From IMG/VR virus record IMGVR_UViG_3300049783_001127: DNA of 64,000 nucleotides. One strand, written 5' to 3'. This stretch comes from a virus. The position numbers were made by a program, and so were the translations under genes. A model generated the notes under the pieces. The model saw only the letters and a program-made list of their open reading frames with translations, did not search any database and had not been told where the DNA came from. Positions 5,773-7,401 of the stretch are shown here, piece by piece; within the stretch, counting starts at the first letter, position 1; the number at the start of each line of letters is the position of its first letter.

Positions 5773-7401
5773 TTACATCATGCCGGGCATACTTCCCATT
5801 GGAGGTAAAGCCGAACCTTCTTCTGTATCATCTACAATGACACATTCTGTTGTTAAAAGCATTGATGCAATTGATGCAGCATTCTCAATAGCAACACGAG
5901 TTACTTTTGTTGGATCAATTACACCAGCTTCAAGTAAGTCTTCAAAAACTTCTGTTCTTGCATTATATCCAAAAGAACCTTTACCCTCTTTTACTTTAGC
6001 AACAATTACAGAAGCCTCTCCACCACCATTTACAATGATCTGTCTTAAAGGTTCTTCTACTGCTCTGTATACTATATTCATTCCTGTTTCTTCATCTGAA
6101 TTTTCAGGATCTAATGAATCTGAACCAAAAGCATCAAGAGCTCTAATAAGAGCAACACCTCCACCAGGAACAATTCCTTCTTCTACAGCAGCCCGAGTTG
6201 CTGCTAAGGCATCATCAACTCTATCCTTTTTCTCTTTCATTTCAACTTCTGTTGGAGCACCTATACTTAATATAGCAGCTCCACTACCTAATTTAGAAAG
6301 ACGTTCTTCCATATGCTCAATATCATAAGGATTACTGCTAGCTTTAATTAAAGTTTTAACTTGCTTAATTCTAGCTTCAATATTTTCTTTACTACCAGAA
6401 CCATCAACAAGAATAGTCTCATCTTTAGTCACTTCTATTTTGTCAGCTTTACCCAACATTTCAAGAGTAAGAGTTTCAAAAGAACCACCAGTTTCTGGAG
6501 TTATTACTTCAGTTCCAGTAAGAATAGCAAGATCTTTCAACATCTCTTTTCTTCTCTCTCCAAAAGCAGGTGCCTTTACAGCACATATTTTCAAAGCTCC
6601 TCTGATACGGTTAGTAATAAGAGTAGTAAGTGCTTCACTCTCAAAATCATCAGCTATAATAAGAAGTGATTTACTTCCTTGAGCTACTGGTTCTAAGATA
6701 GGAAGTAAGTCTTTGATATTTTCAATCTTCTGATCAGTGATCATAATATATGGATTCTCTAATTCACATGTATCTTTATCATTATTGACAAAGTACGGAG
6801 ATAGATAACCATTATCAAACTGCGTACCCTCTACAATTCTTACTGTAGTCTCTGTACTTTTAGCTTCTTCAACCGTGATAATTCCATCATTGCCCACCTT
6901 CTTCATTGCCTCAGCAATAAGAGAACCTATAACTTCATCATTGTTAGCTGATATAGTAGCTATTTGTTTAATTTTGTCATTGTCTGATCCAACTTCTACT
7001 GAAATATTTTTTAACTCATTGACAATTACGGCCACTGCTTTATCAATACCACGCTTAAGATCCATTGGGTTTGCACCCGCTGCTACATTCTTAAGTCCAG
7101 CTGTGATAATAGCTTGCGCCAATACAGTTGCAGTTGTAGTTCCATCTCCAGCAATGTCAGCTGTCTTTGATGCTACTTCTTTAACCATCTGAGCTCCTAT
7201 GTCCTCAATAGGATCTTTGAGCTCAATCTCTTTTGCTACGGTTACTCCATCCTTTGTGATGTGAGGTGTTCCGAATTTTCTTCCAATAACAACATTCCTA
7301 CCCTTAGGACCAAGTGTTACCTTTACTGCATTAGCTAAAGCATCAACACCAGCCTTAAGCTTGTCTCTTGCTTCAACATCATACTTAATCTCCTTTGCCA
7401 T
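5773..7401 (-). CDS. groL: GroEL (Cpn60) chaperonin, full length
   Basis: N-terminal [39 protein letters not shown], the [16 protein letters not shown]-binding motif, and the C-terminal GSMPGMM tail are all GroEL hallmarks. Confidence 0.95.

Follow-up and report, generated by a model that had tools for sequence, protein, structure and literature searches.

The window, by which we mean the whole 64,000-nucleotide stretch of DNA analysed here, comes from the genome of an uncultivated tailed-phage-like virus, probably with a host among the Flavobacteriales of the Fluviicola/Crocinitomicaceae type. The evidence that it is a phage comprises a replication module with PHROG matches, a tRNA array, an endolysin encoded just outside the window and relatives in IMG/VR. 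A near-identity DNA search of GenBank phages with the GroEL region gave no match and no sequenced phage has a DNA polymerase more than 34% identical to the one here, hence there is no close reference genome. A gene-poor divergent region, in which a motif search found three exact copies of TTGACTACCCAT on the minus strand, splits a leftward block of genes that has GroEL at its end from a rightward block that includes a gene for a Cpn10 (GroES-like) co-chaperonin. The two genes and their surroundings are the following:

4546..5749, minus strand: genes for an 81-aa protein, a 161-aa macro-domain protein and a 94-aa CxxC protein, downstream of GroEL and in the same block
5773..7401, minus strand: GroEL, 542 aa, a group I chaperonin, most likely host-derived, with a remodelled apical domain (TIGR02348, residue checks)
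7385..8781, minus strand: five small ORFs (129, 65, 70, 101 and 100 aa) directly upstream of GroEL and in the same direction
56488..57449, no strand assigned: the gene-poor divergent region
59720..59752, plus strand: terminator-like hairpin (14-bp stem, T run) between a GDSL esterase gene and the HExxH/Cpn10 pair
59777..60184, plus strand: HExxH ORF, 135 aa, weakly M78/IrrE-like, the upstream neighbour of Cpn10
60296..60571, plus strand: Cpn10/GroES-like co-chaperonin, 91 aa (Pfam Cpn10, AF2 model, Foldseek)
60713..60740, plus strand: terminator-like hairpin with a 12-bp stem and a T run, after Cpn10 and ahead of the first tRNA
60748..63341, plus strand: array of 20-21 tRNA genes (20 by ARAGORN, one more by Rfam alone)
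63473..64000, plus strand: first part of a 210-aa ORF, orthologous (60-70% identity) to the gene directly after Cpn10 in relatives

The first-pass annotation recognized a full-length GroEL, and the profile searches bear this out. The 542-aa product scores 768 bits against the NCBIfam equivalog TIGR02348 (cutoff 582), with residues 2-527 covered, 255 bits against Pfam Cpn60_TCP1 (PF00118) and E = 3.9e-170 against PHROG 5725 ('chaperonin groEL'), and the motif and tail that typify GroEL are both present. The five small ORFs upstream, whose stop and start codons overlap, are probably co-transcribed with it; four of the five have paired CxxC motifs, none matches a Pfam family above cutoff or a Cpn10 profile, and the number of such ORFs differs between relatives. 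Two ORFs of about 100 aa in this 'groES slot' were considered as cryptic co-chaperonins and rejected, since they match neither a Cpn10 profile nor a Pfam family and are Cys-rich and zinc-ribbon-like. On the downstream side the 161-aa protein matches Pfam Macro (26.7 bits, cutoff 22) and the block ends at a strong terminator-like hairpin (4581-4546; 15-bp stem, then a T run).

The 91-aa product of the plus-strand gene does align to Cpn10 profiles, as had been anticipated, and the GroEL is thus not a solitary one. It scores 33.5 bits against Pfam Cpn10 (PF00166; gathering score 21.1) and E = 5.9e-10 against PHROG 3188 ('co-chaperonin GroES'). It is nevertheless a divergent member, because its scores against the NCBIfam GroES models (~40 bits at most) all lie below the cutoffs of 96-215 bits. 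A broad Cpn10 profile built here gave this ORF 84.7 bits and detected no further Cpn10 ORF in the six frames of the window. The AF2 model, built from 88 sequences (pLDDT 81.8), matches GroES 8wuw_a with a TM of 0.80 and an rmsd of 2.2 Å, and Foldseek returned 29 PDB matches at E <= 1e-3 among the 50 listed, all of them Cpn10/GroES chains; the top ones come from GroEL-GroES complexes, and enzymes with GroES-like domains match far worse. Of the two hallmarks that the first-pass annotation had singled out for inspection, a mobile loop is there, though with a polar third residue in its tripeptide, and the roof hairpin is not. The hairpin is deleted by 9 residues relative to Salmonella GroES and by 4 relative to Flavobacteriales GroES, and residues 48-58 of the model are without strands. 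The mobile loop is proline-rich and 2 residues longer than in solved and cellular GroES, and its G28-I29-V30-T31 motif is invariant in the family, with I29-V30-T31 as the putative GroEL-binding tripeptide. The third position of the tripeptide is polar, as it is in 23% of viral GroES (PMC5649160).

The HExxH ORF that precedes Cpn10 matches PHROG 1365 (E = 2.9e-10) and falls below cutoff against Pfam Peptidase_M78 (16.9 bits), and the adjacency of the two genes is kept in all relatives with sufficient flanking sequence (synteny, L081-L091). An Rfam search over 55.5-64 kb found tRNAs and nothing else. In the relatives L182, L086 and L088-L090 no tRNAs follow Cpn10 and the order runs straight to the orthologous gene, which in L081 lies at 7477-8109 and corresponds to window position 63473 onward; on this gene order, the tRNA array is an apparent insertion, in the present sub-lineage, between Cpn10 and its ancestral downstream neighbour. 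The 210-aa ORF has neither a Pfam nor a PHROG match, and sequence searches of Pfam, PHROG and PDB gave nothing usable for the genes after Cpn10 (210, 399, 222 and 114 aa) or for the 519-aa and 1501-aa ORFs.

The start codons of GroEL (minus strand) and Cpn10 (plus strand) are 52.9 kb apart in divergently oriented blocks, in agreement with the ~53 kb and opposite strands reported at first pass. That annotation also placed Cpn10 in a late/tRNA block and assigned the two genes to different expression programmes. The divergent blocks and the tRNAs after Cpn10 are real, but late expression of this block and a difference in timing are unproven: the plus-strand block is mixed, with a GDSL esterase, the HExxH protein, Cpn10, tRNAs, a weakly tail-fibre-like protein, an endolysin and an exonuclease, and none of the promoter scans (sigma-70-type patterns, a strict Bacteroidota pattern and its one-mismatch version, the last compared with shuffles) rose above chance. 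A near-consensus match that lies 16 nt before the start of Cpn10 is, for that reason, no evidence of a promoter.

The catalytic core of the phage GroEL is that of a cellular chaperonin. All 18 ATP/Mg-site residues checked are canonical, as is D398; in E. coli numbering, T30-P33, K51, D52, D87-T91 ('GDGTTT'), S151, D398, G415, N479, A480 and D495 equal the reference, and the nucleotide and catalytic residues are the same as in the reference and in 79 cellular Bacteroidota GroELs. The inter-ring contact residues K105, A109, R452, E461, S463 and V464 are likewise canonical, and their conservation would be compatible with a double-ring tetradecamer. D83-K327 is also kept. While the ATPase and ring machinery is whole, the apical domain, which binds substrate and lid, has been specifically remodelled. 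It holds 24 of the 30 unusual substitutions, with changes at 24 of its 81 conserved columns as against 6 of the 162 outside it (Fisher p = 2.7e-8); a leave-one-out control with cellular GroELs gave a mean of 0.9 and never more than 5. In all four clade members 21 of the 30 positions are non-consensus, and the remodelled sites, the hinge-2 segment included, are common to relatives at 82-86% GroEL identity. Within the apical binding set (Y199, S201, Y203, F204, L234, L237, L259, V263, V264) seven of nine residues are identical, V263I is conservative, and V264T puts a polar residue at a GroES-contact position that is Thr or Met across the phage clade; V264 is one of three residues said to mediate GroES binding (PMC4730846). 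There is also a one-residue deletion beside Y203/F204. R197 is Asn in all four clade members and E386 is kept, thus the inter-subunit R197-E386 salt bridge, a contact described as key to allostery (PMC3326522), is absent. This loss sets the protein apart from the canonical mechanism but does not affect its membership of the GroEL family. A polar Thr at the third tripeptide position of Cpn10 together with Thr or Met at GroEL residue 264 could weaken binding rather than retune it.

The GroEL was most likely captured from the host lineage, to judge from sequence identity and gene context. Its best cellular matches are a Flavobacteriales MAG (74.6%), Taishania (72.5%) and Fluviicola (71%), a search of 5.8 billion proteins gave ~75% identity to Fluviicola/Crocinitomicaceae proteins, and the best solved match is an ancestral Fibrobacteres-Chlorobi-Bacteroidetes chaperonin (719 bits); no viral contig matches it above 69%. 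A phylogeny had been recommended at first pass. The identities point to the Fluviicola/Crocinitomicaceae type, but the relevant nodes of a neighbour-joining tree have bootstrap values of 21-41%, so the donor lineage is approximate and we base the placement on sequence identity and gene context instead of the tree. A 909-aa 'GroEL' (P0007) that outscored the exact match turned out to be a GroEL with a partial duplication, ~64% identical, and has no bearing here. Independent contigs from different samples carry the identical gene in the same surroundings, and relatives with 82-86% identity that come from other samples, one of them a Tara Oceans contig, fill the same slot, where the replication module ends. 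The related phages L024 and L053 have GroELs that resemble other cellular GroELs more than they do the present one and lie in a different slot with no groES within reach, which indicates repeated capture of groEL alone.

The Cpn10 probably has a different history. It is only 33-40% identical to the GroES of the taxa that match the GroEL at 71-75%, whereas cellular pairs with equally similar GroELs have a GroES identity of 66 +/- 5.6% (minimum 44%, n = 1858). Its family consists of seven clusters at >=57% identity in an isolated clade, with members from the same JGI sample series and from Tara, and the next matches, GroES of unrelated phyla, score 51 bits as against 138 within the family. The discordant identity and the isolated clade together suggest that the two genes probably have separate origins, and Cpn10 most likely resided in the phage lineage before GroEL arrived. 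The low Cpn10 identity could alternatively reflect fast evolution after joint capture. An IMG/VR search with the Cpn10 family alignment added only three distant loci (29-33% identity), none of them on a GroEL contig; both genes on one contig are seen for the present phage alone, the relatives being linked by shared samples or projects.

We propose that the phage GroEL and Cpn10 are the two halves of a group I chaperonin and form a phage chaperonin pair, to which we assign a probability of roughly 55%. Seven Cpn10 subunits would cap the phage GroEL ring, with the I-V-T tripeptide of the mobile loop docking in the groove between helices H and I, and the complex would form an ATP-driven folding cage acting on phage proteins. 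This partnership, and likewise the substrates and the timing, we infer. The major capsid protein would be the classical candidate substrate, and the window yielded neither a capsid gene nor any other candidate. The earlier suggestion that the phage folds its own large proteins in this way is speculation, as the GroEL cage encloses about 60 kDa and the large ORFs adjoining GroEL (2012 and at least 3785 aa) far exceed it.

It is possible, although we rather doubt it, that there is no dedicated pair and that Cpn10 is a lid for the host GroEL in the manner of T4 gp31, with the phage GroEL adding dose and taking either lid. The two genes are not linked and belong to different transcription blocks, many viruses carry GroES alone (PMC5649160), and a Cpn10 adapted to host GroEL would bind a phage GroEL of host-type descent as well, while host GroES might still dock on the latter since L234, L237 and most apical binding residues are kept. 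The marked clustering of substitutions in the apical domain across the lineage, residue 264 and the hinge-2 segment among them, is, however, unexpected if the protein merely increases the dose of a host-like chaperonin. The loss of R197 across the clade brings to mind gp146 of Pseudomonas phage EL, which also lacks the R197-E386 bridge and does not bind GroES (PMC7185714), and hence a phage GroEL that works without a co-chaperonin, leaving Cpn10 with an unrelated partner or role. This is improbable, in that the present protein, unlike that of EL, is 56% identical to enterobacterial GroEL and retains D83-K327, the hydrophobic residues of helices H and I and the inter-ring contacts, and the same genome encodes a Cpn10 with an intact mobile-loop motif.

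A still smaller probability attaches to the 91-aa protein having the GroES fold but being no co-chaperonin, for example a structural or scaffold-like protein. It is far below every NCBIfam GroES cutoff, its gene is upstream of uncharacterised, possibly virion-related genes, and some Campylobacter phage records annotate homologues as 'putative capsid and scaffold protein'; yet most such records call the homologue GroES, and the score above the Pfam gathering level, the invariant Gly and hydrophobic motif of the mobile loop and the top structural matches, all to GroES chains of GroEL-GroES complexes, argue for a co-chaperonin. Finally, that GroEL is closer to cellular than to viral GroELs might raise the suspicion of cellular contamination or an assembly chimera, which we regard as extremely improbable given the independent contigs with the identical gene and context, the phage genes that flank it on both sides in the relatives at 82-86% identity, its overlap of 17 nt with the upstream phage ORF, and the lack of an upstream groES, a gene present at almost every cellular locus for which the upstream sequence is long enough.

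The proposed pair resembles several known systems. Viral GroEL/GroES pairs and roofless viral GroES have already been described (Marine et al., 2017; PMC5649160), and the view in the first-pass annotation that phage-borne GroEL is rare does not hold up against matches in ~280 GenBank phage records and 562 IMG/VR stretches. The present genes are a fresh example of a known phenomenon, notable mainly for their apparently separate origins. The virioplankton systems (PMC5649160), like Cellulophaga phage phi38:1, are tailed phages with a bacterial-type GroEL and often their own GroES. They include Bacteroidetes-like (Fluviicola-like, ~70% identity) GroELs without a neighbouring GroES, and some of their GroES clusters have, as here, no roof hairpin or a polar residue in the mobile-loop tripeptide. 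Where they are paired, the genes are adjacent in either order or separated by one short ORF (PMC5649160), whereas those of the present phage sit on opposite strands at a distance of 53 kb and are discordant in divergence. Closest among sequenced phages (~60% GroEL identity) are the Bacteroides phages DAC16, DAC23 and SJC03, which are likewise large Bacteroidota phages though otherwise unrelated. Their GroES has the same 9-residue roof deletion relative to the enterobacterial protein but forms a canonical groES-groEL operon, as an 87-aa ORF 13 nt upstream of GroEL, and both products are annotated solely as 'hypothetical protein'.

The mobile loop of T4 gp31 has roughly 6 extra residues, compared with an extension of 2 in the present Cpn10, which, unlike gp31, is recognisable by Pfam. 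The two have no sequence match and a structural one that is weak and far behind those to GroES (Foldseek, 1g31_A: TM 0.64, 9% identity, E = 0.022), and T4 has no GroEL. Nevertheless, T4 gp31 and RB49 CocO are phage lids without a roof hairpin and with a lengthened mobile loop, as here (PMC5649160), and by analogy the folding of phage structural proteins is a likely shared purpose. The co-chaperonin-independent proteins of phages EL (gp146), OBP (gp246) and AR9 (gp228) are also phage-encoded GroEL homologues but are very divergent from GroEL, with single or unusual rings, in genomes without a lid (PMC7185714; PMC9598537). The EL type has lost both R197-E386 and D83-K327 and has a narrow, altered H/I groove (PMC7185714); the present GroEL has lost only R197, its H/I groove residues are largely canonical and its genome encodes a Cpn10, so that it does not belong to the EL type.

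Tentatively, the history of the proposed pair may be taken one step further, in a scenario that we consider more doubtful than probable. A roofless Cpn10 may first have commandeered the host GroEL, which is the T4 strategy, and a groEL captured later without its groES may then have been retuned in its apical domain to give a private, orthogonal pair that exchanges no partners with the host. The retuned sites would be residue 264 (Thr or Met), R197N, the hinge-2 segment and the one-residue deletion by Y203/F204. Related phages would have captured groEL independently in a like manner.

A chaperonin pair is the kind of auxiliary gene set to be expected in a large phage, apart from its value for a test of specificity. 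Phage chaperonins serve as natural experiments on lid and substrate recognition by GroEL, and here a nearly canonical GroEL differs from its cellular donors mainly in the domain that binds both. With a roofless lid of apparently separate ancestry and a cellular reference that is ~75% identical, a swap of lid-ring specificity would be testable with four proteins. The distant Cpn10 also suggests, as a warning, that some viral GroEL clades described from short contigs as 'GroEL-only' or 'without GroES' may have an unlinked lid gene elsewhere in the genome. If the pair is indeed orthogonal, many of these clades would be two-gene systems with a distant lid.

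The GroEL and GroES-like genes described in the first-pass annotation are confirmed, since both ORFs match their family profiles. The GroEL ORF is full-length, as claimed, and scores 768 bits on the NCBIfam GroEL equivalog (cutoff 582) and 255 bits on Pfam Cpn60_TCP1, with a match to the PHROG 'chaperonin groEL' family at E = 3.9e-170. The Cpn10 ORF lies above the Pfam Cpn10 gathering score (33.5 versus 21.1) and hits PHROG 'co-chaperonin GroES' at E = 5.9e-10, and it reaches only ~40 bits on NCBIfam GroES models, the cutoffs of which are 96-215 bits. A lack of alignment to Cpn10 profiles would have refuted the first-pass annotation, and the ORF does align to them. 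A broad Cpn10 profile, custom-built from 96 cellular and viral sequences, scores it at 84.7 bits and finds no second Cpn10 in any of its six reading frames across the window. Evidence that the window is phage DNA comes from the PHROG replication genes, the array of tRNAs, the endolysin on near-identical contigs and relatives in IMG/VR (L024 and L053). No close sequenced phage exists, DNA polymerase identity to GenBank phages being at most 34% with no DNA match. The two genes lie in divergent blocks of the window (34.9% G+C), with the following features.

12-4517, plus: 1501-aa ORF at the start of the window, part of a 2012-aa ORF
4581-4546, minus: strong hairpin terminator, preceded 3' of GroEL by an 81-aa ORF, the macro-domain gene and a 94-aa ORF
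4761-5045 and 7385-8395, minus: small ORFs (94, 100, 101, 70 and 65 aa) flanking GroEL, two CxxC pairs each
5026-5511, minus: macro-domain protein, 161 aa, two genes downstream of GroEL (Pfam Macro 26.7 bits, cutoff 22)
5773..7401, minus: GroEL, 542 aa
8781 to 5773, minus: tight ORF set with overlapping stop and start codons, GroEL the last large gene
16767-19474, minus: MoxR-like ATPase (PHROG 1297) and adjoining 498-aa ORF, inside the replication module
~57.1 kb to 4.6 kb, minus: single leftward block, starting with roughly forty small ORFs and including the replication module (helicase, ligase, DnaB-like helicase, primase, HNH-like, ATPase, exonuclease, DNA polymerase)
from 57450, plus: rightward block of a 519-aa ORF, GDSL esterase, 135-aa HExxH protein, Cpn10 and 20-21 tRNA genes
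59025-59717, plus: GDSL-type esterase/lipase with an N-terminal lipoprotein-like signal (…LAMTSC…), two genes upstream of Cpn10
59720-59752 and 60713-60740: terminator-like hairpins flanking the HExxH and Cpn10 pair
59777-60184, plus: 135-aa HExxH protein (VHELLHVLWHH), weakly M78/IrrE-like
60296..60571, plus: Cpn10/GroES-like ORF, 91 aa
62393-62463, plus: 21st tRNA (Rfam 46.2 bits), not called by ARAGORN

Of the two Cpn10 hallmarks named in the first-pass annotation, the mobile-loop motif is there with a polar third residue in its tripeptide, and the roof hairpin is deleted. Alignment with solved and cellular sequences places a deletion of 9 residues in the hairpin relative to Salmonella GroES and of 4 relative to Flavobacteriales GroES, while the proline-rich mobile loop (PVIPPKETISPAGIVTTVNTPELP) carries a 2-residue insertion at its base and its tripeptide region, G28-I29-V30-T31, is invariant (G-I-V-L in enterobacteria, G-I-I-I in Flavobacteriales). 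An AF2 model built from 88 sequences (pLDDT 81.8) is least confident in the loop and has no strands at residues 48-58. It superposes on the GroES chains of GroEL-GroES complexes with a TM of 0.80 at 2.2 A, far better than on T4 gp31 (TM 0.64, E = 0.02), and 69 predicted viral structures match it at E <= 1e-3; among the 50 listed, nearly all the named ones are annotated GroES or Cpn10. One and the same Cpn10 homologue in GenBank Campylobacter phages (H44-H53 and others) is called either 'co-chaperonin GroES' or 'putative capsid and scaffold protein', which is an annotation inconsistency.

The GroEL combines conserved machinery with an altered apical domain. Canonical residues occupy every nucleotide-site and catalytic position checked, the inter-ring contacts, D83-K327 (E. 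coli numbering) and seven of nine apical binding positions, the departures at checked residues being V263I, V264T and R197N; GroES binding is mediated by L234, L237 and V264 (PMC4730846), and the R197-E386 contact has been described as central to allostery (PMC3326522). Across 243 columns that are each at least 95% conserved among cellular Bacteroidota GroELs, the protein deviates at 30, with 24 of the 81 apical columns altered versus 6 of the 162 elsewhere (Fisher p = 2.7e-8). Apical changes in a cellular leave-one-out control average 0.9 (maximum 5), and viral GroELs have a median of 8 changes in the apical domain and 10 outside it. Three relatives of 82-86% identity have a similar skew (26 apical versus 5-7 elsewhere), and at 21 of the 30 positions all four clade members depart from the consensus, among them R197N and the hinge-2 segment (KLAGGVAV to KLGSGAAI); position 264 is T, T, M and M across the four, and the clade has a one-residue deletion after V205. 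Because the distribution and most of the positions recur in the three relatives, the changes are fixed features of the clade. The chaperonin of phage EL, which works without a co-chaperonin, has neither the R197-E386 nor the D83-K327 bridge (PMC7185714); the window GroEL has R197N, keeps D83-K327 and lies between the canonical and EL-like states.

The ancestries of the two genes appear discordant. The best solved match of the GroEL is a reconstructed ancestral Fibrobacteres-Chlorobi-Bacteroidetes chaperonin, and its nearest cellular homologues are from a Flavobacteriales MAG (74.6%), Taishania (72.5%), and Fluviicola and Cryomorphaceae (~71%). A large protein collection holds three clusters at 82-86%, followed by Fluviicola and Crocinitomicaceae at ~75%, and our IMG/VR search returned no viral contig with a GroEL more than 69% identical. 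A neighbor-joining tree, weak at 21-41% bootstrap, groups the gene with Fluviicola-type cellular and GroES-less viral GroELs. The Cpn10 is only 33-40% identical to the GroES of the closest cellular taxa of the GroEL, versus 66 +/- 5.6% (minimum 44.4%, n = 1858) for cellular Bacteroidota pairs with GroEL identity of 70-76%. Its own family comprises only seven clusters at >=57% identity in a profile search, beyond which scores fall from 138 to 51 bits and the matches are GroES from Planctomycetota, Chloroflexi and Pseudomonadota, not Bacteroidota; unlinked Cpn10s on other viral contigs are likewise divergent (36-51% identity). Since Cpn10 identity is far under that of cellular pairs and the GroEL is host-like, we infer separate histories, in which the GroEL would be host-derived and the Cpn10 older and phage-resident, while joint capture followed by fast evolution of the Cpn10 could also account for the discordance.

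The statement in the first-pass annotation that phage-borne GroEL is rare does not hold, as ~280 GenBank phage records, some of them bacterial contaminants, and 562 IMG/VR stretches carry a relative (confirmed in the latter). Viruses carrying chaperonins are common, with adjacent GroES, in either order, on 40% of the GroEL contigs surveyed and a 'GroEL-only' clade (Marine et al., 2017; PMC5649160). That study also described viral GroELs ~70% identical to Bacteroidetes (Fluviicola-like) GroEL without GroES nearby, as well as viral GroES clusters with the roof hairpin deleted, as it also is in T4 gp31 and RB49 CocO. Cellular groES is directly upstream in nearly all of 80 GroEL loci examined (76 with both genes scored). 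Cpn10 occurs within the flanks of 25 of the 80 closest viral loci, mostly directly upstream, in some ~1.8 kb downstream and in three 8.6-9.5 kb off, and the flanks of the closest loci, up to 10 kb long, lack it. Bacteroides phages DAC/SJC have a canonical groES>groEL operon with both genes annotated just as 'hypothetical protein' (in DAC16, MT074137.1, at 11724-13623), the 87-aa ORF in the groES position scoring 83.5 bits on the broad profile. In one IMG/VR contig (L018, 10001-12362), the match to residues 1-524 of GroEL extends over 2362 nt where ~1570 would be expected, which suggests a ~790-nt insertion within a viral GroEL that may be an intein, intron or frameshifted segment.

Relatives found in different samples, one of them a 121-kb Tara Oceans contig, have GroEL in the same slot, downstream of genes for the DNA polymerase, a ~500-aa protein and a 129-aa protein and ahead of the convergent giant ORFs, with a varying number of small Cys-rich ORFs in between (four CxxC ORFs by GroEL here versus 0-2 in relatives). 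The five CxxC ORFs around GroEL look zinc-ribbon-like and have no family match, and the macro-domain protein could bind or remove ADP-ribose, perhaps in counter-defense. On a near-identical contig the giant ORFs, of 2012 and then at least 3785 aa (L175, 12885-21629), both converge on the GroEL block; the second reaches 4628 aa in a Tara relative, and a weak DUF7831 match is the only family assignment for either. The MoxR-like ATPase and 498-aa ORF are kept together in four relatives (L024, L053, L178 and L180), where the 498-aa homologue bears DUF2201 domains. The gene-poor stretch heading the leftward block contains three exact minus-strand copies of TTGACTACCCAT within 600 bp (56488-56499, 56630-56641 and 57058-57069), two extending into a 24-nt repeat (ATGGGTAGTCAAAGAGGGA...), with no further exact copy in the window; they may serve as promoters for early genes or as regulator sites. 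Since every promoter analysis of the window was at chance level, expression of the two chaperonin genes in different programs, as proposed earlier and suggested by the divergent blocks, is only a possibility.

Wherever a relative has enough flank, the HExxH gene is the upstream neighbor of Cpn10, and its product may be functionally linked to the co-chaperonin. The corresponding region of Cpn10 relatives has no GDSL gene; C92-type peptidase-like and family 2 glycosyltransferase-like ORFs are found there. The tRNA array is also absent from this position in them and looks like a later insertion, because the relatives join Cpn10 straight to an orthologue (60-70% identity) of the 210-aa ORF that comes after the array in the window. 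In near-identical contigs the rightward block runs on from this ORF to a 399-aa protein (weak tail-fiber similarity), an endolysin and an exonuclease.

We propose, with a probability of roughly 55%, that the roofless Cpn10 would dock onto and cap the phage GroEL ring, its I-V-T loop sitting in a remodeled H/I groove, and that the capped GroEL would fold phage proteins. One JGI sample series yields both a GroEL relative (86%) and two Cpn10 variants (P0004 and P0006), and Tara data yield a GroEL (83%) and a 69%-identical Cpn10, which is consistent with a conserved pair and falls short of proof because both genes share one contig in this phage only. The main, less probable alternative is that there is no dedicated pairing, the Cpn10 serving host GroEL like gp31 and the phage GroEL adding capacity. 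The replication module is common to two relatives, L024 and L053 (57% identity for the DNA polymerase, ~60% for the ATPase), yet their GroELs occupy a different slot and are closer to other cellular GroELs (75.8% and 68.3%) than to that of the window (63%), which indicates that they captured groEL independently, without groES.

That the phage GroEL is lid-independent, as in phage EL, is improbable. A non-chaperonin role of the 91-aa protein, set beside its fit to GroES chains, is slighter still, and contamination or chimeric assembly is the least credible reading.

The window thus holds a real, well-preserved phage GroEL plus Cpn10, a type of viral pair that is already known. What is modestly new is the unlinked arrangement and apparently discordant ancestry of the two genes, together with a clade-wide remodeling of the GroEL apical domain.
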